DNA from: Candidatus Marinacidobacterales bacterium
Lineage (GTDB): Bacteria > Acidobacteriota > Vicinamibacteria > Marinacidobacterales > DATDRI01
NCBI GenBank assembly: GCA_965219415.1
Contig: OZ244742.1
Span: 704,001-768,000, forward strand
Direction: 5' to 3'
DNA length: 64,000 nucleotides
Part shown: positions 2,416-33,805 of the stretch, piece after piece
How the letters are laid out: every line of letters begins with the position of its first letter
Position numbering within the stretch: position 1 is the first letter of the stretch
Notes under the pieces: generated by a model
Database searches by the model: none
The model's input: the letters and a program-made list of their open reading frames with translations, nothing else
Told to the model about the DNA's origin: nothing
Position numbers and translations under genes: made by a program

Positions 2416-3851
2416 GAAAGTGTGCCAATCTTAGTTGGGAATTGAAACGGCTCCAAACCCCGTGGTTTGATGGCGTTGGACAAAACAAAATCAAGCCGCG
2501 AAGAAAGGAGCCGAGATGGGAAGTCTGCTACGTTCGGTCAAGAAACGCAAGAAGTCGCGTCGTTTGGGTGAGGTCGAGATGGTGAGGCACGAGGATTACG
2601 GGGAACTCGCGCTGGACGCCAAGGTAGAGATGATCCGTTGGTTGGTCCCCCTTGGTCTAATGCACGTTCACGAGTTGCTCGACGACGAAGTGAAGGCGTT
2701 GGCGGGAGAGCGATACTCTCGCAAGGACGAGCTGGAGCGCGGTCGCCGTCCCGGAAGCAACCCGGGCACGGTAGGGCTTGGCGGCCAGCGGGTACCGATC
2801 CGTGTGCCACGGGTTCGGAGCATCGAGGGAGGAGAGATTCCGCTTCGCTGCTACGAGGCGGTGAGCCACGGCGGTGAGGTGAATGATCTTCTGCTGAAAC
2901 GAGTTCTCTACGGAATCTCTTGTCGCAACTACGAGGCGGCAGCGGAAGCGATTTCGGGCGCCATCGGGCTGTCGAGCTCAACGGTGTCCCGAGGGTTCGT
3001 GCAAGCGAGCGCTGCGAAGCTGCGGGAGATGCAGGAACGGGATCTGACCGGCGAGGATGTGGTGGCGCTGTTTCTGGATGGGAAGACATTCGCCGAGGCA
3101 ACGATGGTCGTGGCTCTGGCCATCACGCTTTGCGGGGAAAAACGCTTCTTGGGCTTCGTGGAGACGGACACGGAGAACGCGCAGGTGTTGACGCCGTTCC
3201 TGCGTTCACTGCTCAAGCGGGGACTCGATATCTCCCAGGGTCTGCTGGTGATCATCGACGGCGGCAAGGGTCTCCAAGCGGCAGTCAAGAAGGCATTCCG
3301 TAAGCGGGCCCTGATACAACGCTGCCAGTGGCAACAAACGTGAAAACGTAGTGAGCTACCTGTCCAAGGGCGAGCAGGCGTCATGGCGCAAGCGGCTCCA
3401 GTGGGCCTACAACAGGCCGGAGTACGAAGAGGCCCTCACTGCGCTCGAGCAACTCCACGGTGAGTTAGAAGAGCGGAACCAATCCGCAGCTGGCAGCCTG
3501 GAGGAAGGCCTCGAGGAGACGCTGACGTTGCATCGACTCGGCGTGCACGCGGTGCTGGGCCGTTCGTTCAAGACGACGAACTGCCTTGAGTCCGTCAATG
3601 CTCTCGTCGAGGAACGCTGCGCGAAGGTCGACCACTGGAAGAACTCGAGCCAACGCCAGCGCTGGTTGGCAACGGCGCTCGTAGACATCGAACCGCGCTT
3701 GAGGAAGGTGGTGGGCTACCGCCATCTTCCCAAGCTTCGCGAAGCTCTCAAGCGGGAACTGAAGATCGAGGCGAAGACATCAACCGTATCGAAGAAGAAG
3801 GTCGCTTAAACGTGAGCCGTGGAGAGTTTCAACTAAGAATGGGCTTGACTC
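2416..3851 (+). mobile_element. IS256-family insertion sequence
   Basis: Imperfect terminal IRs (TCTTAGTTG...ACGGCTC / GAGCCGT...CAACTAAGA); 8-bp target duplication CGTTTCTA at 2408-2415 and 3852-3859. Confidence 0.9.
2516..3809 (+). pseudogene. IS256 transposase, frameshifted near 3332
   Basis: ORFs 2516-3343 and 3351-3809; motifs LFLDG, IIDGGKGL, QRCQW(H)KRENV (broken by one extra A), TTNCLES. Confidence 0.85.
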
Positions 3852-3863
3852 CGTTTCTATACA

Positions 3864-4822: not shown

Positions 4823-5775
4823 TGCAGCGGGTCCTCCTTCTTTAGGGTGCGGATCTTCCGCACCATGCGATCGCGCCAGCGGCGTATTTCGGCGCGATCG
4901 ATGCCGCCCACCATCTCGTCCGTCGCCTTCCCCATTTGCTCGATGGAACCGGCGTCGAGCTCGGGCGTCGAGCCCAGGTCGTTCATGAGCTCGAGGTAGT
5001 CGCCTCGATAGCGAGTGAAGTACTGCCGAACCCCGCCATCGGCGTTCGTATTCGCGACACCGAACGGACCCATCAGCGCCCAACGCAGTCCAAGGCCATC
5101 TCGGATGACGGCGTCTACCGCATCCACATCCGCCACGCCGCTCGTCACGAGGTTCACCGCTTCCCTAATTAACGCGGCCTGCATGCGGTTCAGCAGAAAG
5201 CCAGGAACGTAGAAGTTCATCACCACCGGTGTTTGCCCCACTGCTTTCAAGAAGGCGCACGTCTGCTGCACCACCTCCGGATCGGTTTCCTTCCCTGGCA
5301 GGACCTCGACCACCGGTACAACGTGGGGAGGATTGACGGGATGGGCAACGATGCATCGGCGCGCTCCGGTTAGACCCGCGGCGATCTCCGTCATGTCTAT
5401 CGCCGAGGTGCTGCTGCCGAGGATGGCCGCCGGATCGGCGGCGCGATCGAGCTCCGCGTATAGAGCCTGCTTGAGCTCGATCTTTTCCGGGCCGCTCTCT
5501 TGAACATACTCAGCGCCGGCGAGGGCGTCCTTCAAATCCGCGTGCGCGGTGACTCGAGAGCGCCGAGAAGTCGCCTCTTCGCTCGACAGCAACCCGGCCT
5601 CGCGATCCTCCTCCAAGTCCTGCTCAATCCAAGCGAGCGCGTTTTCGACCTGAGCGACATCACGGTCATGGATCCGAGTCGGACAACCGGCACGTGCGAA
5701 AATTTGTATCCAGCTTCTACCGATGACACCCGTGCCGATGACTGCGACCGTTGTCGAAATCTTGGGTGCGGTCAC
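4819..5775 (-). CDS. 3-hydroxyacyl-CoA dehydrogenase-like protein (carnitine/L-gulonate 3-dehydrogenase type)
   Basis: VIGTGVIGRSW, VQESGPE, SSTS, HPVNPPH, GLGLRWALMGPF. Confidence 0.88.
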   Translation of the reverse strand: MTAPKISTTVAVIGTGVIGRSWIQIFARAGCPTRIHDRDVAQVENALAWIEQDLEEDREAGLLSSEEATSRRSRVTAHADLKDALAGAEYVQESGPEKIELKQALYAELDRAADPAAILGSSTSAIDMTEIAAGLTGARRCIVAHPVNPPHVVPVVEVLPGKETDPEVVQQTCAFLKAVGQTPVVMNFYVPGFLLNRMQAALIREAVNLVTSGVADVDAVDAVIRDGLGLRWALMGPFGVANTNADGGVRQYFTRYRGDYLELMNDLGSTPELDAGSIEQMGKATDEMVGGIDRAEIRRWRDRMVRKIRTLKKEDPLQ

Positions 5776-18713: not shown

Positions 18714-20090
18714 CTAAGAAACTCCGGTGTGCGGACTCGATGCAGCCGCCTCTACCAACGTGTAGCCTAATTGACGAGCGCGACGCTGGAGGTTGTGGAG
18801 GACCCTCTCCTGATAATGTCTCTCGTAGTAGTCGGTGCCAGGATCGACATAGGCGAGTCCGAAGCGAACGGCGTTGTAGAACAGCACTGCTAACTTTCTC
18901 GCTGTCGCGGTCACTGCCTTCGCCTTGCCGACTCGTGCGCCCACTCGACGGTAGAATGCACCAAGGGCGGTCTGCGTTCGCCCAACGTTCACCGCAGCGA
19001 TACGAAAGAGCGCGGCGGCGCGATTCGAGGACCGACGCGACTTCGAACTCAGCACGCGGCCGCCCGAGATCTTGTTGCCGGGTGCTAGGGTCAGCCACGA
19101 CGTGAAGTGTTTGGCGGTCGGCCATTTCCGCATGTCGTCACCGCATTCGGCGACGAGTCGCAGAACCGTGTACGGACCCAATCCATGGATCTGGCTCAAA
19201 TCGGCACCCAAGAGGGTATACAGAGCTCCCCGTACATCGAACTTCGGTTCGTTCTTCCCGCTCGCATGTCGGACACGTGGAATCGGCTCGTCGGGCGCAG
19301 TTCGATCGTGGTTCAGCTCGCCTATAGCGGCTTCGACCTCCACGTCGCATTCGGTGACCCTCGCTTGAACGAAGTCATAGAGTTGGAGCTCATGGCGTAG
19401 CGCGAAGAGGTGTTCGAGCCGGTAGTTACCTGTCAGAGCCTCGCGGATCGTTTCGACAGATTGCTTGCATCGGACGTCACGGTACTGGGCAAGCACGTCG
19501 GGCTCGTGAACACCGCCGACTATAGCGCGAATGATCTTCATGCCCGTGACACCTGTAATATCAGTCACTACGTGCTGAAGCTGGACGTTCATCTGCATAA
19601 GGGCTTTCTGCATCCGCTGGATGTGCGTCGCTGCCTGGTTGATGAGGCGTTCACGGTGGCGAAGAAGTGCCCGGAGCCGAACCAACTGACCACGAGGCCG
19701 GAAGCTGCCGCGAAGAAGACCATGCTCGTGCAGCTGCTGTAGCCACTGAGCATCGTTGACGTCGGTCTTCCGCCCTGGGACATTCTTGACGTCACGTGCG
19801 TTGACCAGGAGCACCTCGAACCCGCGCGCTTCCAAGATCTCGAAGGCTGGAATCCAGTACACTCCTGTCGATTCCATAGCGATGGTGGTGATCCCGACCT
19901 CTGCGAGCCAGTCGGCCAACTGGTGTAGGTCGCCCGTGAAGCTTCGAAACGTCCGCACGGACATCTCGACCCGCTCCGGTGGGACCGCAACCACATGGAA
20001 TGTCGCTCCGATGTCGATTCCTGCGGCGTTAACGTGGATGGACGTAATGGATCGTCTGGACGACTTCCGGCGCTTCCTTCTTGTCATCAT
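18714..20090 (-). CDS. IS110 transposase/recombinase
   Basis: DEDD motifs GIDIG, MESTGVYW, KTDVNDA; C-terminal ISGG serine motif. Confidence 0.95.
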   Translation of the reverse strand: MMTRRKRRKSSRRSITSIHVNAAGIDIGATFHVVAVPPERVEMSVRTFRSFTGDLHQLADWLAEVGITTIAMESTGVYWIPAFEILEARGFEVLLVNARDVKNVPGRKTDVNDAQWLQQLHEHGLLRGSFRPRGQLVRLRALLRHRERLINQAATHIQRMQKALMQMNVQLQHVVTDITGVTGMKIIRAIVGGVHEPDVLAQYRDVRCKQSVETIREALTGNYRLEHLFALRHELQLYDFVQARVTECDVEVEAAIGELNHDRTAPDEPIPRVRHASGKNEPKFDVRGALYTLLGADLSQIHGLGPYTVLRLVAECGDDMRKWPTAKHFTSWLTLAPGNKISGGRVLSSKSRRSSNRAAALFRIAAVNVGRTQTALGAFYRRVGARVGKAKAVTATARKLAVLFYNAVRFGLAYVDPGTDYYERHYQERVLHNLQRRARQLGYTLVEAAASSPHTGVS

Positions 20091-20094
20091 TCCT

Positions 20095-20310
20095 CCTTCC
20101 GGATTAAACCCGAAAGGAGGGATGGGCGGAAGTTCATCATTTTCCTAAACGGGATCGCCAAATGGCGCCACCACTGTCAAGTCCGCAGCCACCCCCGGAC
20201 CATGTTTTTTTACGGGATCGAAATCACCAGTAAGCGGACGGCCTCTCCTCTCGAGTAGCCAAGAGGGTAGCCGTCAGGGAGTTTCTGGTTCAACAGGAGG
20301 CGCGCCCGCG
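20095..20310 (-). ncRNA. putative IS110 bridge RNA, copy 1 (ends approximate)
   Basis: Duplicated CGATCCCGT motif, followed once by AAAAAAA (target match) and once by TTAGGAAA (donor match). Confidence 0.6.
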
Positions 20311-20322
20311 CTCGAAGGTTTC

Positions 20323-21699
20323 CTAAGAAACTCCGGTGTGCGGACTCGATGCAGCCGCCTCTACCAACGTGTAGCCTAATTGACGAGCGCGACGCTGGAG
20401 GTTGTGGAGGACCCTCTCCTGATAATGTCTCTCGTAGTAGTCGGTGCCAGGATCGACATAGGCGAGTCCGAAGCGAACGGCGTTGTAGAACAGCACTGCT
20501 AACTTTCTCGCTGTCGCGGTCACTGCCTTCGCCTTGCCGACTCGTGCGCCCACTCGACGGTAGAATGCACCAAGGGCGGTCTGCGTTCGCCCAACGTTCA
20601 CCGCAGCGATACGAAAGAGCGCGGCGGCGCGATTCGAGGACCGACGCGACTTCGAACTCAGCACGCGGCCGCCCGAGATCTTGTTGCCGGGTGCTAGGGT
20701 CAGCCACGACGTGAAGTGTTTGGCGGTCGGCCATTTCCGCATGTCGTCACCGCATTCGGCGACGAGTCGCAGAACCGTGTACGGACCCAATCCATGGATC
20801 TGGCTCAAATCGGCACCCAAGAGGGTATACAGAGCTCCCCGTACATCGAACTTCGGTTCGTTCTTCCCGCTCGCATGTCGGACACGTGGAATCGGCTCGT
20901 CGGGCGCAGTTCGATCGTGGTTCAGCTCGCCTATAGCGGCTTCGACCTCCACGTCGCATTCGGTGACCCTCGCTTGAACGAAGTCATAGAGTTGGAGCTC
21001 ATGGCGTAGCGCGAAGAGGTGTTCGAGCCGGTAGTTACCTGTCAGAGCCTCGCGGATCGTTTCGACAGATTGCTTGCATCGGACGTCACGGTACTGGGCA
21101 AGCACGTCGGGCTCGTGAACACCGCCGACTATAGCGCGAATGATCTTCATGCCCGTGACACCTGTAATATCAGTCACTACGTGCTGAAGCTGGACGTTCA
21201 TCTGCATAAGGGCTTTCTGCATCCGCTGGATGTGCGTCGCTGCCTGGTTGATGAGGCGTTCACGGTGGCGAAGAAGTGCCCGGAGCCGAACCAACTGACC
21301 ACGAGGCCGGAAGCTGCCGCGAAGAAGACCATGCTCGTGCAGCTGCTGTAGCCACTGAGCATCGTTGACGTCGGTCTTCCGCCCTGGGACATTCTTGACG
21401 TCACGTGCGTTGACCAGGAGCACCTCGAACCCGCGCGCTTCCAAGATCTCGAAGGCTGGAATCCAGTACACTCCTGTCGATTCCATAGCGATGGTGGTGA
21501 TCCCGACCTCTGCGAGCCAGTCGGCCAACTGGTGTAGGTCGCCCGTGAAGCTTCGAAACGTCCGCACGGACATCTCGACCCGCTCCGGTGGGACCGCAAC
21601 CACATGGAATGTCGCTCCGATGTCGATTCCTGCGGCGTTAACGTGGATGGACGTAATGGATCGTCTGGACGACTTCCGGCGCTTCCTTCTTGTCATCAT
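20323..21699 (-). CDS. IS110 transposase/recombinase
   Basis: Identical 458-aa protein to 18714-20090. Confidence 0.95.
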   Translation of the reverse strand: MMTRRKRRKSSRRSITSIHVNAAGIDIGATFHVVAVPPERVEMSVRTFRSFTGDLHQLADWLAEVGITTIAMESTGVYWIPAFEILEARGFEVLLVNARDVKNVPGRKTDVNDAQWLQQLHEHGLLRGSFRPRGQLVRLRALLRHRERLINQAATHIQRMQKALMQMNVQLQHVVTDITGVTGMKIIRAIVGGVHEPDVLAQYRDVRCKQSVETIREALTGNYRLEHLFALRHELQLYDFVQARVTECDVEVEAAIGELNHDRTAPDEPIPRVRHASGKNEPKFDVRGALYTLLGADLSQIHGLGPYTVLRLVAECGDDMRKWPTAKHFTSWLTLAPGNKISGGRVLSSKSRRSSNRAAALFRIAAVNVGRTQTALGAFYRRVGARVGKAKAVTATARKLAVLFYNAVRFGLAYVDPGTDYYERHYQERVLHNLQRRARQLGYTLVEAAASSPHTGVS

Positions 21700-24124: not shown

Positions 24125-25493
24125 GGATCCGTCCCGCTTCCCGTGGAAATAAGAATGGCGTAACCTCCGGTTAAGCAAAACGAAACCGCGCCTGGAAAGG
24201 CGAGGAGGAGGATTACGCCATGAAGAAGCCTACCACCATATCGAAGGAGTCTGTAAGCGAGTACCGGGAGTTCGTCCAACTTCGGCTGCGTATGCGGGTA
24301 CTGGAGGCGATCGAGGTTGTGCTCGAGGAAGAAGTCGACCAAGCGCTGGGGTGTTGTAGCTACGAGCGTGCGGAAGACCGCCGTGGATATCGCAACGGAG
24401 CCGAAACCCGTCGCGTGACGACGTCGGTGGGAACTCGCGAGCTCCGGGTGCCACGAGCCCGCGTGCGAGACGAGGAAACGGGAGAAACGACAGAGTTCAG
24501 GAGCGAGCTGTTTGCCCCGGTACGCGCGCCGGACTCGTGAGGTCGACGAGGCGCTCTTGGGGACGTACTTGTCGGGCGCGAATAGCCGCCGGGTCCGCAA
24601 AGCGCTGAAACCACTGCTCGGTGAGGAGCACCTATCGAAGAGCGCGGTGTCTCGCGTGGTTAGCCGGCTGAAGGAGCGCTTCGAGGAATGGCAGAACCGT
24701 GCTCTCAGCGAGGAGGTCTACGCGATCGTTTACCTGGACGGCTTCCACCTGAAAGTGCGGATGGCGAAACGTGTGATCAGCGTACCCGTACTGGCCGCGC
24801 TCGGGGTCGCGCCAGACGGGCACAAACGTCTGTTGTCATTGCGTCTGGCGGTGAGCGAAGCCTCGACGCATTGGGGCTCCGTGCTGGAGGGACTCCAGGC
24901 TCGAGGACTCCGGGCTCCCAAGCTAGTGATCAGCGACGGCCACAAGGGGCTGACGAAAGCGCTGGAGAAGTGGCCGGGGTGCCGGTTGCAGCGATGTACC
25001 GAGCACAAGCGCGCCAACTTGCTCCAACATTGCCCGGCGCACGCACGCCGTGAGCTCCGGCGTGACTACAACCGGATCGTCTACGCCAAGAACGGGATCG
25101 ATGCTCGCAAAGCCTATGACGAGCTCGTCGCCAAGTGGACGCCTCTCGCGCCGGCCGTCGTCCGAAGCCTAGAGGAGGCCGGTAATCAGCTGCTGACCTT
25201 CTACGAATTCCCTCGTGCCATGTGGAAATCGTTTCGAACGACCAATGCTCTGGAGAATCTCAACCGCGAGTTTCGACGCCGGACGAAAACCCAAGCGTCG
25301 TTCTCCAGCGAGGAGTCCGCGGTCGCTTTGCTGTTTGGGCTTATCGCCTCTGGCCAGATTCAACTACGACGCATCGACGGCTACCAACGTCTGAGCGAGG
25401 TTCTCGAACACGCGGAGGTTGCCGCCTGATATGATACTCTGATGACGGAGTGGAGGGCGCCGTTCTTTTTCCACGGACCTCGGGACACATCCC
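24125..25493 (+). mobile_element. IS256-family element (second type); transposase 24220-25429 frameshifted near 24512
   Basis: IRs GGATCCGTCCCG..CCGTGGAAATAAGAATGGCG / GGATGTGTCCCG..CCGTGGAAAAAGAACGGCG; GYRNG, YLDG, ISDGHKGL, RTTNALE; no TSD seen. Confidence 0.88.
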
Positions 25494-27819: not shown

Positions 27820-27953
27820 GTCGAACACCGCGCTAAGCTGCAGGCGCGCATAAATGAAGGCGAGCATAAGCGGCAGCGAAGCTGCCGCGTTGCGAGCATC
27901 CTACTACGCGCGCGCGGACGTGCGCGCGGGTCAGCTTCAGCGCGTTGTTAGGC
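27820..27953 (-). other. attC site
   Basis: Minus strand GCCTAAC..CGCGCTGAAGCTG ... CAGCTTAGCGCG..GTTCGAC, with a single extra base in the arm. Confidence 0.8.
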
Positions 27954-27955
27954 CG

Positions 27956-29033
27956 CGCGAATTCATAAAGTAAGTGCAACACAGCTCCCGGATGAGGTGA
28001 CCTGGAATGTGCCACGATTCCTCAAACAACCAAGAATGGGGACTCGCTAATGACTTATTACCAGATCACCTCGGAAGAACGATACACCATCGCGGCGCTG
28101 CGACGGGAGGGATTTTGCTCGGCCGAGATTGCGCGGCGCCTGGGGCACCACCGGAGCACAATCTCGAGAGAGGTCAGGAGGAACAGCTCACGTAGTGATG
28201 GATGCTACCGGCCGAGCAAGGCCATCGAGAAAACGAACGGACGACGATCGCGGTCTCGCCGGAACCAGTACTTCACAAAGGCCGACTTTGCCCTGGTGGA
28301 GAAGAAGCTTAAGGCTGACTGGAGCCCAGAGCAGATCTCCGGCCACCTGCGCCTTCACGGCGAGCTCTCGATCAGCCACGAGACGATCTACACCCACGTC
28401 TGGCGGGACAAGGAGGCCGGAGGACATCTATACCGCCACCTTCGATGCTCGCCCAAACTTAGACGCAAGCGCCACAACAGCTATGACAGCCGAGGCCACC
28501 TGGCCGGGAAGCGTCATATCTCCGAGCGGCCGCCTTGTGTCGACAAGCGCAGTGCCGTTGGCCACTGGGAGATCGACACCGTGGTAGGAAAAGGCGCGCC
28601 GGACTGCGTAACCACGCTCGTGGAACGAAAGACGGGCTATGCGCTGATCGGCAAGCTGTCCGACCGCACCATGTTCAGCACTAGTCAGCGAACGAAGATG
28701 TTGCTCCGGCGGGTGCCGGAGCAGGTCAAGACGATCACCGCGGACAATGGTACGGAGTTCCACGACTACGAATCCGTCGAGGAAGCGACCGGCGTCAAGT
28801 TCTACTTCGCAACTCCCTATCACTCATGGGAGAGAGGCAGCAACGAGAACTTCAATGGCCTGCTACGACAATACCTGCCGAAGCGCACCAGCCAAGCAGC
28901 GCTCACGCAACGCGACTGCGATCGTATCGCAAACAAGCTCAACTCACGGCCCCGCAAGAGACTCGGCTACCGCACACCGGAGGAACGTTTCCATGGGCTC
29001 TAACGAATGGTGCGCTTCAAACTTGAAGTCACA
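27956..29033 (+). mobile_element. IS30-family element
   Basis: Imperfect IRs (CGCGAATTCA / TGTGACTTCA); 3-bp TSD CCG. Confidence 0.85.
28050..29003 (+). CDS. IS30 transposase
   Basis: STISREVRRN, WSPEQIS, GHWEIDTV, TADNGTEF, WERGSNENFNGLLRQY. Confidence 0.95.
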   Translation: MTYYQITSEERYTIAALRREGFCSAEIARRLGHHRSTISREVRRNSSRSDGCYRPSKAIEKTNGRRSRSRRNQYFTKADFALVEKKLKADWSPEQISGHLRLHGELSISHETIYTHVWRDKEAGGHLYRHLRCSPKLRRKRHNSYDSRGHLAGKRHISERPPCVDKRSAVGHWEIDTVVGKGAPDCVTTLVERKTGYALIGKLSDRTMFSTSQRTKMLLRRVPEQVKTITADNGTEFHDYESVEEATGVKFYFATPYHSWERGSNENFNGLLRQYLPKRTSQAALTQRDCDRIANKLNSRPRKRLGYRTPEERFHGL

Positions 29034-29061
29034 CCGTCCTCCCTGCATGCAGCCGTAGTGA

Positions 29062-29544
29062 TCAGGCGGTGGCCAGCGCTCGCTTCAGTAGCGATATCTG
29101 GCCTGCATGATACAGGTTGTGCTGTGTCACACCGATGAACTGAGTGTACGCCGTGTACGGGGCCTCCGGGACGAGCGGCTCGTCGAGCCGCTCTGCCGGA
29201 AATGCGCGCACCGCTTCCCGGAGCTGCTGATTCAACCGGCGGAGCGCTTCCACAGCTTGCTGCCAGTTTTCGGCCGTCGCCGGCGGACATGAAGGCCAAT
29301 CCTCTTCCGGCGTGACCTGGCGCCCATCTCCCGCCAGTCTGCGCAGAACGAGAGCGTAATCGCTGCCGATGTGCAGGACGAGCTCCCAAATGCTGTGTGC
29401 ATCCGGGATTGGATGGCTGCTGGCTTGCTCAGCCGACACGCCTGCAAGGGCTTCGAGTACAGAGGGGCCGTGCCAGGCCTCACCCTCGAGCGCCAGCCGA
29501 AGCTGCTCCTCCAGCCGCACCATCTCGCCGGCCATCACGCTCAC
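29062..29544 (-). CDS. cassette DinB family protein
   Basis: GEAWHGPS, HSIWELVLH, QHNLYHAGQI; follows core GTTAGGC. Confidence 0.88.
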   Translation of the reverse strand: MSVMAGEMVRLEEQLRLALEGEAWHGPSVLEALAGVSAEQASSHPIPDAHSIWELVLHIGSDYALVLRRLAGDGRQVTPEEDWPSCPPATAENWQQAVEALRRLNQQLREAVRAFPAERLDEPLVPEAPYTAYTQFIGVTQHNLYHAGQISLLKRALATA

Positions 29545-29558
29545 TCACGTTTCTATCG

Positions 29559-29660
29559 GCCTAACAGGGTGCATCAGCTGCGGGCGGCCAACAACCACCC
29601 AACAGTGGTTTACAGCTAAGATGATGGTGGCCGACCGTCTGCTGCATGCACGTGTTAGCC
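29559..29660 (-). other. attC site
   Basis: Minus strand GGCTAAC ... GTTAGGC with GTGCAT(C)/ATGCAC arms. Confidence 0.85.
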
Positions 29661-29667
29661 ACCCGCT

Positions 29668-30063
29668 TCATTTTGCCGGCACCGCCACAGTAAGTCGTAC
29701 CGGGCGCCAATCTGGCGACCTCCGGAGTTCGAGTGTCGCGTCGCCGCCCCCGGCTCCCTCGAGTATTGAATAGAACTGCGTCTCGGGATATCCGTGTCGG
29801 CCAACGAAGACATCACCGGCCCGAACCTCCGCCCGAAAAAACGGCCCGTTAGGTAGGACCCACGTCACGCCAAACATGCGTTCGCCGTCGGCTTCCACAT
29901 AGCCGGTTGCAAACCCCAAGTCGTCGCGCAGCTGGGGTCCAACCATGTCTCGCCAATACCAGGCGCGTACATCGTAGGAAAGACCAAGGGCAACCATCGT
30001 ACCCATTGCCGCGAGCGCTACCACGAGAACAACCAAATACCTCGTGCCTAACCTGAGGACCAA
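29668..30063 (-). CDS. cassette membrane-anchored PDZ-like protein
   Basis: TM helix then VTWVLPNGPFFRAEVRAGDV; TTG start after AAGGAG; bounded by GTTAGCC / GGCTAAC. Confidence 0.6.
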   Translation of the reverse strand: MVLRLGTRYLVVLVVALAAMGTMVALGLSYDVRAWYWRDMVGPQLRDDLGFATGYVEADGERMFGVTWVLPNGPFFRAEVRAGDVFVGRHGYPETQFYSILEGAGGGDATLELRRSPDWRPVRLTVAVPAK

Positions 30064-30078
30064 ATCAGCTCCTTGTGT

Positions 30079-30168
30079 GGCTAACATAAGGATTCTATCC
30101 GGAGCGCACGGGCAAGAAAAGTCGGAGTTGGCAGAGGGTGGCCGTGGTCCGGATAGAATCTGTTGAAC
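30079..30168 (-). other. attC site
   Basis: Minus strand GTTCAAC-A-GATTCTATCCGGA ... TCCGGATAGAATC-CTTAT-GTTAGCC, 13-bp perfect arm. Confidence 0.8.
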
Positions 30169-30397
30169 TATCCGCTGCGCGGCGGGAGTGTATGGGGATT
30201 GTATGGAATGGGCGAAGGTTGTTGGGGGGTGTGTTGGGGAATAAGGCCGGGGGCGAGGAGCCGAGCGGGGCTATAGGAGCGGGGGCGAAAGGGGCGATTG
30301 ATTTCATACAGGGGCGGCGAAGCTTGGAAAGGCTCGAGCGGGCAGAGCACTCGCGCTCGGGCGACAGGTCTCGAAGATTCAAAGGGCATAGTCCGCA

Positions 30398-31600
30398 CTA
30401 GGAGGAATCGAAGCTCCAGGACGCGATGGCCCGAGCAGGGCGAGCCATCACTCGGACGAGGAGGAGGCGTCCGAGTTTGCATTCGGGACAAAGCTCGAGT
30501 TCCTCGACCTGCTGCTGCAGCGTCCCATCCGTTTGTTTGAGCTCGGAAACGTCGTCGTTGACGGAACTGGACTTTGCTCCGTCCAGGAACTTTCGTGCCC
30601 GCGCAAGTTTTTCTGCTCGATGGCGGTTGGCGAGAAAACCGTAGTAGCGAACGCGGACGAAACCTTTGGGAAGCACATGGAGCAGAAACCGTCTCAGAAA
30701 CTCCACGGCGTCCAAGCTCATCGTGCGTTGGCGATTACCGTGGGCGTAGTCTTTCCAACGAAAGGCGACCTTTCCGTCTTCCACAGACACGAGCCTGTGG
30801 TTGGAGATCGCGACGCGGTGGGTATAGCGGGCGAGGTATTTGAGCACTTGCTTGGGACCGCCGAATGGAGGCTTGGCATAGACCACCCAGTCTTTGTCTC
30901 GAAGTGGCTGGAGCCAAGCTTCCCAGCGCTGGGGATACTCTAAATCGCGAAGGCCTCCGTGGAAAGCGAGCTGTTGCTGCTCCCAACCCCGTTGGAGTTG
31001 AGCTGTGAACTTGCCCCGGAAGAGCCGGCTCAAGACCCGGACGGGCAGAAAAAAACCGTCTCGGCAGCTCACCCACCGCTCGGCGTCGAGGCCGATGCCG
31101 CCGCCCGGAACAATGCAGTGCAGATGCAGATGCGCGTGTAGGTTCTGCCCCCAGGTGTGTAGAACCGCCATGCAGCCGATCTCGGCACCCAGATGCTTCG
31201 GGTCTCGAGCGAGCGTCAGTAGTGTCTCGGAAGCGGCACGGAACAACATCCCGTAAACGGCGCGACGATTCTGAAGCGCCATCGGAGCCAGCTCGCTTGG
31301 AAGCGTGAAGACGACGTGAAAGTACTCGACGTCGAGTAGCTCCTGCTCGCGTTGCTCCAGCCAATCCGCTCGAGCCGCCCCCTGACACTTCGGGCAATGC
31401 CGGTTACGGCACGAGTTGTAGACCGGTACCTCGTGAGCGCATCGGTCACACCGATTCAGATGGCCTCCCAGAGCGGCCGTCCGGCACTGAACCACCGCAT
31501 TGAGAACTTGCCATTGTTCTCGCGAAGGCCGGTAGCGCTTCAGATACGCTGCCCCGCACTCGCGGATGACATCGGCCACTTCCGGCCGATGTCCGCTCAC
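30398..31600 (-). CDS. IS91-family HUH/Y2 transposase with N-terminal zinc-binding domain
   Basis: CRTAALGGH, SCRNRHCPKC, HVVFTLP, HLHLHCIV (HUH), YLARY (Y2). Confidence 0.93.
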   Translation of the reverse strand: MSGHRPEVADVIRECGAAYLKRYRPSREQWQVLNAVVQCRTAALGGHLNRCDRCAHEVPVYNSCRNRHCPKCQGAARADWLEQREQELLDVEYFHVVFTLPSELAPMALQNRRAVYGMLFRAASETLLTLARDPKHLGAEIGCMAVLHTWGQNLHAHLHLHCIVPGGGIGLDAERWVSCRDGFFLPVRVLSRLFRGKFTAQLQRGWEQQQLAFHGGLRDLEYPQRWEAWLQPLRDKDWVVYAKPPFGGPKQVLKYLARYTHRVAISNHRLVSVEDGKVAFRWKDYAHGNRQRTMSLDAVEFLRRFLLHVLPKGFVRVRYYGFLANRHRAEKLARARKFLDGAKSSSVNDDVSELKQTDGTLQQQVEELELCPECKLGRLLLVRVMARPARAIASWSFDSS

Positions 31601-32460
31601 TTGAGCTCGTCGGCCTCCGAAACGTTCTCGAGCAGATCCACCACTTCACGCTTCATCTGAGATGCCCCCGCCGCCACGTGAAGGTAGATCGCTGTCGTGT
31701 TCAGACTGCTGTGACCCAACCGTAGTTGGAGCGTCCGTAGATTCGTGCCCGCTTCCAACTGATGCGTCGCGTAGCAATGACGCATCGTCTGCGTCGTCAC
31801 CCGTTTTCTCAGTCCCGCCTTCAAGGCCGCTAAACGACAAGTCTTCTGGACAGGCGACGGCGTCACGGGAGTCTCCTGGCTCTCCGCTTCAAACAACCAC
31901 CTCTTTGGACGATACTCCCGCCAGTAATCACGCTGCTGCTCTACAAGCGTTGGCGTCAGCTCTACATAGCGATCCTTACGACCCTTTCCCTGCTTCACAC
32001 GGATCACCATCCGCTCGCTGTCGATGTCGCCCGCCCTCAGGTGCAATGCCTCTGACAGACGAAGCCCTGACGAGTACATGGTCTTCAGGATGGTCCGGTA
32101 CTTTAGATTCTTTACCTTGCAGAAAAAACGTCCCAGCTCTTTCGCGCTCAATACCTCGGGCAACCTCTGCTCCCTTTTCGCGTAAGGTATCTGCTCCACT
32201 GTGACCGCTCCTCCCAAGGTCACACAGTACAAAAAGCGCAATGCACAGACCGCCTGGTTGAACATCGACCAGGACGCTTTCCTCTCCTCCACCAGGAAAA
32301 GCTGGTATCTTCGAATGTGCTCGGCGCTCAACTTCTCCTGCGAGAGGCGAAAGTAATCCGCGAATCGCGCTACGTGGCTCACGTAGCACTCAATCGTTCG
32401 CTGGGAATAGTTGCGGATCCGGAGATCCTCGATCATCCGGGTTCGTAGTATGCTAGACAT
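31597..32460 (-). CDS. tyrosine recombinase with SAM-like N-terminal domain
   Basis: GLRLSE, GKGRKDR, QTMRH (HxxR His replaced by Gln), LGHSS, TTAIY. Confidence 0.9.
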   Translation of the reverse strand: MSSILRTRMIEDLRIRNYSQRTIECYVSHVARFADYFRLSQEKLSAEHIRRYQLFLVEERKASWSMFNQAVCALRFLYCVTLGGAVTVEQIPYAKREQRLPEVLSAKELGRFFCKVKNLKYRTILKTMYSSGLRLSEALHLRAGDIDSERMVIRVKQGKGRKDRYVELTPTLVEQQRDYWREYRPKRWLFEAESQETPVTPSPVQKTCRLAALKAGLRKRVTTQTMRHCYATHQLEAGTNLRTLQLRLGHSSLNTTAIYLHVAAGASQMKREVVDLLENVSEADELK

Positions 32461-32587
32461 ACTTGGCTCCTTTCGTGAACGGGTTGATTCATTGGCTCGA
32501 ACACCCTAGTTCACGAGGGGAGCCTTTTGCATGTCCTTACGCAAACGACTCGGTTGGTGGCGTAAAAGACTACCGCGAAGCGGTTTA

Positions 32588-32640
32588 GTTCAACAGTTAT
32601 TGGAAGGTTCCATCGATCACTTGCCTTATAGCACGTGTAC
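32588..32640 (-). promoter_or_regulatory. putative attI and cassette promoter
   Basis: Minus strand CCAATAACT-GTTGAAC with no attC hairpin upstream; extended -10-like TGCTATAAG at 32625-32633. Confidence 0.4.
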
Positions 32641-32829
32641 AAAGCGGGTGCGACTTTCTAATCGGGTCGGTGGGAGGTTTTCAAGTGACTCCAGGTGACT
32701 TGTTTGCAATGGATTGTAGCGTGGGGTGAGTGATGGCCGGAGCTGTTATCGGGCGGAGGGCGGCTTTATAAGAGGATAAAGGGTTGCCAACATGAACCGC
32801 TGCGGCCCCGTTGGCTCCATTCCCTGACC

Positions 32830-33805
32830 TCAATCCATCCTGTCGAGGGGGCTGCGGACGCCACGGCCGCCTCGGTTCACGACGTGGCAATAGATCATGG
32901 TCACGCTGACGTCCTTGTGGCCAAGCAGCTCTTGAATGGTACGGATATCGTAGCCGTCCTCGAGCAGATGGGTTGCGAAGGAATGCCGAAGGGTGTGGCA
33001 GGCCGCGGGCTTCGGAATCCTGGCCTCTCGCACAGCCTGGCGAACCGCCCGCTGGACGACGGTTTCATGAAGATGATGGCGTCTTCGTTCGCCGGATTCG
33101 CGGTCCGTGTATATCCTCGTTGCGGGAAAGACCCATTGCCAACCCCAGTCGAAAGTAGCTTGCGGGTATTTGCGGCCAAGCGCGTACGGGAGCTGTACTG
33201 CCCCCGCTTTCGCCTTCAGGTCCCGTTCATGCAGCCGGCGGGCGCGATCCAGGTGCTCCTTTAGAGCCTTGATCAGTCTAGCGGGCAAAACGGTCATGCG
33301 ATCCTTCTGGCCTTTACCGTCTCGCACGGTAATTTCTCGACGTTGGAAGTCGATATCTTTGACGCGCAGGCGACAGCATTCGAGCACCCGCAGACCCGCT
33401 CCGTACATCAAAGAAGCCATGAGCCACGGGGCACCGCGGAGACGCCCAAGGATGGCCTCTACCTCCCGGCTAGAGAGCACGACAGGCCGACGCGCGGGGC
33501 GTTTGGCGCGGGCTATCTCTATCAAAGTTCAGCTCTCGGCGGAGCACGTTGCGGTACAAGAAAAGGATCGCCGCGAGCGCCTGACCCTGGGTCGATGCGC
33601 TGAGCTTGCGCCTGGTGGCCAAGTACGTAACGTAGGCTGAGATTTCCGACTCCCCCATCCGGTCCGGGTGACGCATGTCGTAGAAGCTGATGAAGCGTCT
33701 GATCCAGGAGACGTAGGCCTTTTCGGTCCGGCGGCTATAGTGGCGGACCCGAACGGCAGACCGAACCCGGTCGAGTAGCTTCGGCGATTGAGAACGAGTC
33801 TGGAT
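32830..33805 (-). pseudogene. intI: integron integrase, one frameshift near 33525
   Basis: RHYSRRTEKAY, SASTQGQALAA; GLRVLEC, IntI-specific insert WQWVFPA...[30 protein letters not shown]. Confidence 0.92.

Follow-up and report, generated by a model that had tools for sequence, protein, structure and literature searches.

The 64-kb window analyzed here (positions 704,001 to 768,000 of contig OZ244742.1 from Candidatus Marinacidobacterales bacterium) contains an integron in which the place of the first gene cassette is taken by a two-gene mobile element, encoding a tyrosine recombinase (YR) and a Y2 transposase of the IS91 family. All coordinates given below are positions in this window, and the cassette array, the integrase gene intI and the element all lie on the minus strand (Table 1). 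The components of an integron, an intI gene, an attI site and an array bounded by attC sites, were found together; the intI gene is frameshifted, and three successive units of the array, the element among them, keep the same boundary rule.

Profile searches bore out the identities that a sequence-only reading of the window, an earlier interpretation made from its letters, had proposed for the two genes of the element. The transposase matched Y2_Tnp (PF04986) with 227.9 bits and Zn_Tnp_IS91 (PF14319) with 110.2 bits, and it scored 456.6 bits against NF033538, for which the cut-off is 125, making it a strong IS91 equivalog. It combines the Y2 HUH transposase with the N-terminal zinc-binding domain by which the IS91 family is recognized, and the motifs HLHLH and YLARY can be read by eye in its translation. 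The stop codon of the upstream YR gene overlaps the start of the transposase gene. In the recombinase, the catalytic-type motifs GLRLSE, GKGRKDR, RHCYATH, LGHSS and IYLH were likewise recognized by eye. Its match to the IntI profile TIGR02249 falls into two stretches and, with 181.5 bits, stays below the cut-off of 265; together with the missing IntI-specific insertion in the catalytic domain, this places the protein outside IntI. As judged from its sequence, the YR of the element is an IntI-like recombinase without the IntI-specific insertion. A passage in a preprint (bioRxiv 10.1101/542381) mentions tyrosine recombinases in IS91 elements and groups them beside IntI, again without its insertion.

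The unit formed by the two genes is built like a gene cassette, as the sequence-only reading had claimed, and the motifs on which that claim was based (GTTGAAC, GTTCAAC, the 13-bp arms and GTTAGCC) were all found where it had placed them. Directly after the G of attI the unit begins with TTGAAC, a start that its R''-like box, GTTCAAC, complements exactly (7 of 7 positions, counting the G). Cassettes 2 and 3 follow the same rule; the R'' box of cassette 2, GGCTAAC, is the exact complement of G plus TTAGCC. In a circular form of the element the R' box would be G plus TTGAAC, a perfect partner to GTTCAAC. Two hallmarks of a cassette, the G↓TT bounds and the first six bases complementing its own R'' box, are therefore present, but a third, mobilization by IntI only and no recombination enzyme of its own, is absent, since the unit encodes both YR and Y2. 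The boundaries of the element were set by the alignment of attI with empty sites and by the start of cassette 2.

Table 1. Features of the integron and of the YR-Y2 element (positions in the 64-kb window; ↓ marks the crossover point).
Feature	Position	Strand	Details
Whole element	30085..32593	minus	2,509 bp, if cut at both G↓TT points
YR gene	31597..32460	minus	tyrosine recombinase, 287 aa; Phage_integrase and SAM_4 domains
Y2 gene	30398..31600	minus	Y2 (HUH) transposase, IS91 family, 400 aa
Left end	32573..32594	minus	G↓TTGAAC TAAA CCGCTTCGCGG; R'-like box and small CCGC-N3-GCGG palindrome
Left-end core GTTGAAC	32588-32594	minus
Right inner inverted repeat	30162..30182	minus	CCGCGCAGCGG ATA GTTCAAC; small palindrome and R''-like box
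Right inner GTTCAAC	30162-30168	minus	plus strand reads GTTGAAC
attC-like site	30079..30168	minus	GTTCAAC-A-13-nt arm-44 nt-13-nt arm-CTTAT-G↓TTAGCC; last six bases belong to cassette 2
Hairpin arms	30091-30103 and 30148-30160		perfect, 13 nt each; 44 nt between
Next-cassette start GTTAGCC	30079-30085	minus	follows the CTTAT spacer
attI module	32595..32789	minus	ends ...GGAACCTTCCAATAACT before G↓TT
intI	32830..33800	minus	apparently disrupted; C-terminal 231 codons in frame, 32830-33525
Cassette 2	29559..30084	minus	starts TTAGCC; open reading frame in the 29668-30087 region; canonical attC 29559-29660 (R'' GGCTAAC, R' GTTAGGC)
Cassette 3	27820..29564	minus	starts TTAGGC; DinB-family open reading frame 29062-29544; attC 27820-27953 (R'' GCCTAAC, R' GTTCGAC)

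The terminal inverted repeats of about 22 bp that had been proposed were recovered: aligned over 22 columns with one gap, the two ends agree in 19 of them. The right inner repeat (30162-30182), written in minus-strand orientation, reads CCGCGCAGCGGATAGTTCAAC. The left end, read on the plus strand, has the order palindrome-TTTA-GTTC and resembles a terIS. The 22-nt left-end pattern is expected 0.01 times per shuffled window when up to 3 mismatches are allowed. The bare GTTGAAC/GTTCAAC occurs 8 times on both strands of the window, which is about chance level, so that what makes the ends significant is where they lie, how far the repeat extends, and the presence of the hairpin and of homologues. 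As the element's own genome has no more than two left ends and a single right-end hairpin, the ends cannot be defined from this genome alone. A lone 15-nt exact copy of the first hairpin arm and the two following bases lies elsewhere in the genome, after ...GTTCGCAG (C3:1208462), and may be a right-end remnant or a chance match.

At the right end, the attC-like site shows both the R and the L pairings, with an internal loop of 1 x 5 nt between them and bulges higher up the stem. When this end is joined to the left end across a circle junction, a folded site resembling attC would arise, in which an R box GTTCAAC/GTTGAAC, lengthened to about 22 bp, is separated by an asymmetric internal loop from an L stem whose TATC/GATA core is conserved; we hold this part of our interpretation with even confidence. 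An Rfam scan of the whole window yielded no family at the gathering score, canonical attCs included, and is uninformative on how attC-like the site is. A strict attC pattern matched the element's site only, and a looser scan based on folding detected the site at 27820-27953 and missed that at 29559-29660, which was found by eye; the scans are no census of the array.

The position of the element was defined by comparison with other attI sites of the order. Regions downstream of intI, or of intI stumps, in relatives align with 32595-32789, and a pattern derived from this alignment gave 14 sites in 8 of 55 genomes, one of which (L098, in the eighth genome) was doubtful and was set aside. G007, a genome flagged as unpublished, enters such tallies only, and none of the conclusions depends on it. 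The other 13 of the 14, from seven genomes, align over about 200 bp and all end in ...TGTT. A conserved box, TATAAG, precedes the crossover by about 35 nt in these modules; in most of the 13 it is found as (A/G)CTATAAGGC (window 32620-32640), and it may serve as a -10 element driving the first cassette, here the YR and Y2 genes. Ten of the 13 continue with ordinary cassette starts (AGCT, AGGT, AGCC, AGAC, AGGC, GGGC twice, CGTC, CGAC and CGGC), and three continue with the left end of the element: the window, a second copy in its own genome described below (copy 2) and G038:C484. A fourth, more diverged attI was detected in G012 beside an intI stump; it is followed by GAACAAAACCGTTTCGCGG, with no YR or Y2 left, and represents a left-end stump. 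By comparison with the attI sites of relatives that are empty of the element and carry differing cassette starts, the element lies at the exact attI crossover. Elements or stumps of them are located at the exact cassette entry point in three genomes, that of the window and two further ones.

The attI modules of relatives are in part solitary. They were found in G014 (three; L102, L107 and L109), G038 (four; L105, L108, L110 and L111) and G001 (one; L101), mostly with no intact intI within 1.5 kb and with a different cassette start after each. Two of the G014 modules lie 9 kb apart on one contig. In G001, which belongs to the same genus as the genome of the window, the homologue of the 195-bp module is 78% identical. 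Behind it stands a bona fide cassette, which starts TTAGCT and whose attC begins AGCTAAC, and no intI was found within 5 kb of the module.

The intI gene of the window is apparently disrupted. Its C-terminal part scored 342.9 bits against TIGR02249 (profile positions 87-315), whereas the SAM-like N-terminal part, at about 33554-33754, is in a different frame, with a shift near ...NVLRRELN in the three-frame translation. A tblastn search with the YR protein of the element also matched intI at 33554-33754 in this other frame, and no ATG, GTG or TTG start was found by eye in the 33500-33800 region. An assembly error is the alternative to a real disruption. Between the intI stop and the first GTT lie 237 non-coding bp (32595-32829), consisting of about 40 bp followed by the 195-bp attI module. 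The earlier statement that the module occupies the first position next to intI thus holds for the position and the strand, with the 3' end of intI facing the array, but the neighbouring gene itself is frameshifted and shows no start codon by eye.

The three occupied attI sites might go back to a passive passenger that IntI took up a single time as a cassette, or that entered an ancestor by a single insertion, and that has since been inherited at the first position with its own machinery uninvolved. All three belong to one integron lineage (intI about 70% identical at the DNA level), their left ends are alike (83-89% over 36-65 nt), and the array may be frozen, given that intI looks broken. That the first position has been frozen since ancient times is nevertheless unlikely in view of the 10 attI sites of the order with other first cassettes, three of which are in the same genome as an occupied one. 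Moreover, the element of the window is intact and 99.96% identical to copy 2, indicating recent activity or duplication. We regard such a passenger as improbable. The cores before GTT at the occupied attI sites (AATAACT, AATTAGT and ACTTCAA) do not have, by eye, the ATA-N6-GTT spacing of the other insertions of the window's clade, which is a weak hint that IntI rather than the YR may have acted at attI.

Relatives of the element were obtained by scanning one genome per species with the Y2 protein, which gave 229 confirmed matches, and 79 loci were kept. They are mostly from metagenome-assembled genomes of Acidobacteriota and Planctomycetota, with 49-63% identity in Y2. A YR gene or a remnant of it lies directly upstream of Y2 in 72 of the 79 loci and is lacking in 7. 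No IntI-type match besides the YR was found at any of the 79 loci, in flanks of up to 4 kb, less on short contigs. In four genomes with several copies of the element, none of the matches to TIGR02249 exceeded 265 bits; the best reached 134 bits, and all of them were split (profile about 4-181 and 237-315) like that of the element's YR. The multi-copy relatives have consequently spread in genomes without a true IntI.

Multiplication in all four of these genomes fits the proposal of the sequence-only reading that the module could integrate using IntI or its own recombinase. Its term selfish cassette stands as far as build and placement are concerned but not for the homologues, none of whose 79 loci has an IntI within the flanks examined; as they are mostly not at integron sites, the element is primarily an insertion sequence and not a cassette. 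The alternative of an IS91-like element targeting attC cores found no counterpart in the window, where the site is attI.

Whether ends and hairpin move together with the element had been named as the point to check, and they do. In one genome the right end including the hairpin was identical in all 8 copies compared, with the sequence diverging right after the core, and the 5 multi-copy families compared all had sharp ends. The left ends of the relatives, which share the architecture of that in the window, always read (core)-G(A/T)AC-(T/G)AA(G/A)-CCGC-N-GCGG. The right ends always consist of an inverted copy of the left end, a hairpin with invariant TATC...GATA, a spacer such as CTAAG and the same core; family-specific pairs are, for example, ATTTGTAC/GTACAAAT and GACTTGAA/TTCAAGTC. 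The attC-like site of the window (30079-30168) is homologous to this hairpin. The core present at both ends has 3-5 nt and is specific to the family (GTTT, GATTT and GACTT; GTT in the window), which is compatible with a tetranucleotide rule and with a recombinase crossover core alike. One locus (L051) has unequal cores, ATGT and ATAT, a pattern predicted equally by a YR model and by a model with Y2 only. Two loci carry, after the element, a tandem repeat of the L' arm, spacer and core, which make up the 3' half of the right end (L022, about 5520-5560; L035, about 5130-5160), and in a third the whole hairpin is repeated, followed by a further half (L065, about 5540-5680). Insertion beside leftover ends, or slippage at initiation or termination, could account for these repeats.

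The hairpin at 30091-30160 could in principle be the attC of an earlier cassette whose R'' box then received an IS91 element. In favour of this, the right inner repeat, when read on the opposite strand, adjoins the hairpin in the way the left end adjoins its target. This explanation is contradicted for the window by three observations: the right ends of the relatives carry a hairpin with the same invariant TATC/GATA core at the same position, and in another genome this hairpin is repeated along with the rest of the element in 8 of 8 copies; no second hairpin separates the element from cassette 2; and the R''-like box matches the start of the element itself and not the TTAGCC of cassette 2. We consider it highly unlikely.

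Covariation in the hairpin was analyzed as well. A strict rule detected the hairpin in 44 of 81 elements and a looser one gave 54 distinct sequences, two of which (L029 and L064) looked spurious; several of the misses were at contig ends. From these 54 right ends, 32 were picked by eye for the alignment so as to avoid redundant and spurious ones. RNAalifold predicted 14 pairs, 10 of them with compensatory changes. Pairing was found in 91.5% of the cells compared to 75.8% in shuffles, double changes in 72 cells compared to 20.2, and the observed score was reached by none of 500 shuffles; as the aligned right ends are related, this count is not a probability. A safer control was to slide the registers by 1-3 columns, which reduced pairing to 31-46%. 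By these comparisons, the hairpin covaries strongly and is under structural selection.

Insertion sites of the relatives were characterized by their left flanks, which are not random. In the family with the core GTTT, the motif CG[AG]NA was present 4-7 nt before the core in 11 of 17 distinct left flanks, compared to 60 of 1927 control GTTT sites from the same loci, and the family with the core ATTT showed GYGNNAN in 17 of 19 distinct left flanks compared to 42 of 1554 control sites, again from the same loci; as the motifs were written after seeing the flanks, the enrichment is indicative only. The flank consensus resembles the element's own arm, by which we mean the sequence adjoining the right inner repeat on the other strand: TtTcCGatAAcCcc↓GTTT against TTTTCGATAGCTGG↓GTTT for the first family, and ATGAGTGtAATgGgG↓ATTT against ACTTGCGATAGGGGG↓ATTT for the second. 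The right flanks contained no motif, and no full hairpin was seen in the left flanks of 7 copies of one family. A match of the left flank to the L' arm was considered and discarded because of its spacing; it is the other arm that matches. Going by these consensus sequences, the target looks like a double-stranded imitation of one arm and the R box of the element's own folded site, following the logic of attI versus the folded attC.

We interpret the element as an autonomous, intact member of the IS91 family with an attC-like end and not as a passive cassette, and assign an even chance to a cycle in which Y2 makes single-stranded circles and the YR, or IntI at attI, integrates the folded site. 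This interpretation draws on the cassette geometry, the exact attI position, the long arm-like target motif, the conserved and, by its motifs, apparently active YR, and the literature on IS91 and IntI. Beside the observed anatomy, attI position, co-travel and covariation of the hairpin, spread without IntI and target mimicry, we infer all enzymatic steps of the cycle as follows. Y2 would nick the ends and make a single-stranded circular copy, as in canonical IS91, for which one section of PMC13181058 reports that only bottom-strand single-stranded circles insert. The circle would fold at the attC-like site, and a tyrosine recombinase would carry out a single strand exchange between it and a double-stranded target, at a short core that both share (GTT in the window); replication would then complete the insertion. 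For cassettes at attI and for phage CTX at dif, a general statement in PMC9345347 describes integration by tyrosine recombinases that involves replication. Where the genome has no integron, the YR of the element would act on targets imitating one arm of the element's site; in the window the target was the attI of the integron, and the element may have been handled like a cassette by the host IntI.

The same anatomy can also be explained by IS91 rolling-circle transposition with Y2 as the sole enzyme, in which the large hairpin and the small palindrome would form oriIS, the left palindrome beside GTTC would be terIS, the core would be the target tetranucleotide, similar to that of ter, and the YR an accessory. 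The YR might then have a part in termination or regulation, like Orf121 in IS91, or serve to resolve multimers, and attI would merely offer NGTT and a tolerable flank. The strong NF033538 equivalog score is in line with this explanation, as is the position of the YR, that of orf121 in IS91 with the overlap of stop and start. The ends agree in sequence with the description of IS91 in the relevant section of PMC13181058, in which oriIS has two subterminal palindromes and terIS a single one beside GTTC; for the family, oriIS may have one or two such palindromes, and the cleavage site at terIS may be GTTC or CTCG. The same section states that the target and ter tetranucleotides of IS801 and IS1294 are the same, and the left-end tetranucleotides found here, GAAC, GTAC and GGAC (GTTC, GTAC and GTCC on the other strand), belong to those listed for IS91. 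Canonical IS91, however, is described as needing the tetranucleotide only, whereas here a flank of 12-14 nt is constrained and imitates the element's own arm. Exact occupation of three attI crossover points and conservation of a YR with catalytic-type motifs in 72 of 79 loci likewise speak against transposition by Y2 alone, which we regard as possible but as having clearly less than an even chance.

Several findings weigh against recombinase-mediated integration of a folded circle, the cycle we favour. The ends also fit those published for the IS91 family, so that Y2 alone could do everything, and that model likewise predicts the short core at the two ends. The site departs from a canonical attC in having 1 nt on one side and 5 nt on the other between its R and L boxes. 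The three attI occupancies may not be independent events. Deletion derivatives lacking the YR have multiplied, which is also in favour of Y2 alone: they account for the 7 loci of 79, and one genome contained 36 Y2 matches compared to 10 for YR. These derivatives of 1.67-1.99 kb (L022/L023, L034/L037, L038/L045 and L040) have normal ends, the usual target motif and at least two copies. YR-bearing copies, able to act in trans, were present in all 4 genomes examined that have YR-less copies, and the multiplication of the latter is therefore not decisive. Of 24 public runs, all available as contigs, 6 contained at least half of the sampled words; the contigs of 4 of the 24 (X19, X21, X1 and X2) contained no circle, excision or attI-to-cassette-2 junction, and contigs cannot show rare circles. 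The joints in them had short sides of 20-46 letters and many mismatching pieces. Finally, the abstract of an eLife paper (PMC7790495) credits the IntI insertion with the shift to single-strand recombination, and the YR of the element is without that insertion. The near-perfect stems found here would, by analogy, suit a mode like that of XerCD on phage CTX. XerCD integrates the folded strand of this phage without such a domain, the fold imitating a duplex site.

A further point of this kind comes from copy 2 (C1:1162609-1164891), which is 99.96% identical over 2,283 bp and spans window positions 32789 to 30507. The attI module is contained in it in full (195 bp); missing are the last part of Y2 and everything of the right end. 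Other insertion sequences surround the copy. Because it includes the attI module, copy 2 is not the product of a precise site-specific event. One possibility for its origin is one-ended rolling-circle transposition past the left end with subsequent truncation, another a rearrangement mediated by insertion sequences. The 195 bp beyond the left end are what one-ended transposition by Y2 alone would give, but copy 2 is without the ori end and thus not a clean product of such an event.

Copy 2, which consists of attI plus the element, and the solitary attI modules with fresh cassettes in relatives led us to a more speculative idea that we think unlikely, though worth stating. IS91-YR elements would be free-living "one-cassette integrons", made up of a rolling-circle enzyme supplying single strands, an IntI-like YR without the IntI insertion and a folded attC-like site, and would employ their own recombinase or a resident IntI. 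They would be either relatives of the integron ancestor or parasites derived from the integron system, and read-through at the left end might carry attI modules along and seed new arrays.

Among known systems, the IS91 family (IS91, IS801 and IS1294) shares with the element the zinc-binding Y2 HUH transposase and an upstream open reading frame whose stop overlaps the transposase start. In sequence, the ends of the element also fit those of the family, which differ from each other, have subterminal palindromes and bear a GTTC-type tetranucleotide on the gene-proximal side, and no obvious variable target duplication is seen. The family differs in that here the ends form an inverted repeat of about 22 bp, the right end is attC-like with an R box across the circle junction, the target flank is constrained over 12-14 nt and insertion is at the exact attI crossover. 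Integron cassettes likewise begin directly after the G of attI with TT and four bases complementing their own R'', end in a terminal hairpin followed by G↓TT, and have the orientation of the array, but the element differs from them in its two genes including a recombinase and a transposase, the extended R pairing, the asymmetry of 1 versus 5 nt and its multiplication outside integrons. Members of the IS91 family with an upstream YR gene exist in ISfinder, and in the literature searched their names turned up in passing mentions only.

One case in print is ISShvi3 in a Shewanella integron, which a single remark in PMC9229058 presents as cassette-like; the remark contains no analysis of ends, hairpin, attI or relatives, and the likeness is one of description only. 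The pairing of a YR with IS91 and one cassette-like case are thus already published. No description of the conserved hairpin, of the position at attI, of the target rule and mimicry or of the spread without IntI turned up in our literature search, which left supplements, ISfinder and TnPedia outside.

Elements of the IS1111-attC group (IS110 family) and group IIC-attC introns are comparable in being mobile elements specialised on integron recombination sites, as summarized in a part of PMC9229058; they use a DEDD transposase or a reverse transcriptase, insert inside attC and are not shaped like cassettes, in contrast to the present element, whose site is attI or a sequence imitating the element's own arm. 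Phage CTX at dif is also a rolling-circle replicon whose folded single strand is integrated by a tyrosine recombinase through one strand exchange, but here the recombinase is carried by the element itself. Alongside the IS1111-attC elements and the group IIC introns, the element would represent a third kind of integron-associated mobile element, and it points to a way in which attI modules may travel. For phage CTX, the recombinase is XerCD of the host and the site is a fixed chromosomal one. Integron recombination is unusual in that a tyrosine recombinase acts on a folded single strand, and its origin is an open question. The element joins the nearest relatives of IntI, an enzyme making single-strand circles and an attC-like site, and is found both free-living and in attI, which makes the question of integron origin testable with YR, Y2 and IntI.

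Other insertion sequences are present in the same region. Cassette 3 is interrupted by an IS30-family element (HTH_38 and rve domains) at 27956-29035, which lies 2 nt upstream of the attC R'' box GCCTAAC. Several of 5 further IS30-family copies in the genome have RYYYAAC-like boxes 2-5 nt downstream (GCCTAAC, TAGCAAC and GACAAAC), and in G001 an IS30-type element of the same kind adjoins the AGCTAAC of an attC; the observation also covers L092 (about 2600-3650). This IS30-family element may be another attC-seeking insertion sequence. Two tandem, near-identical transposase genes of the IS110 family (DEDD) lie within the array region at 18714-20090 and 20323-21699, and a hairpin between them (20288-20407) ends in GTTGAAC; members of this family of the IS1111 type enter attC sites. 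A 1.37-kb element of the IS256/Mutator family (24125-25492) has more than 40 full or partial copies in the genome, and dozens of copies exist of a 1.44-kb element (about 2416-3853). Insertion sequences of at least five families have accumulated in the cassette array.

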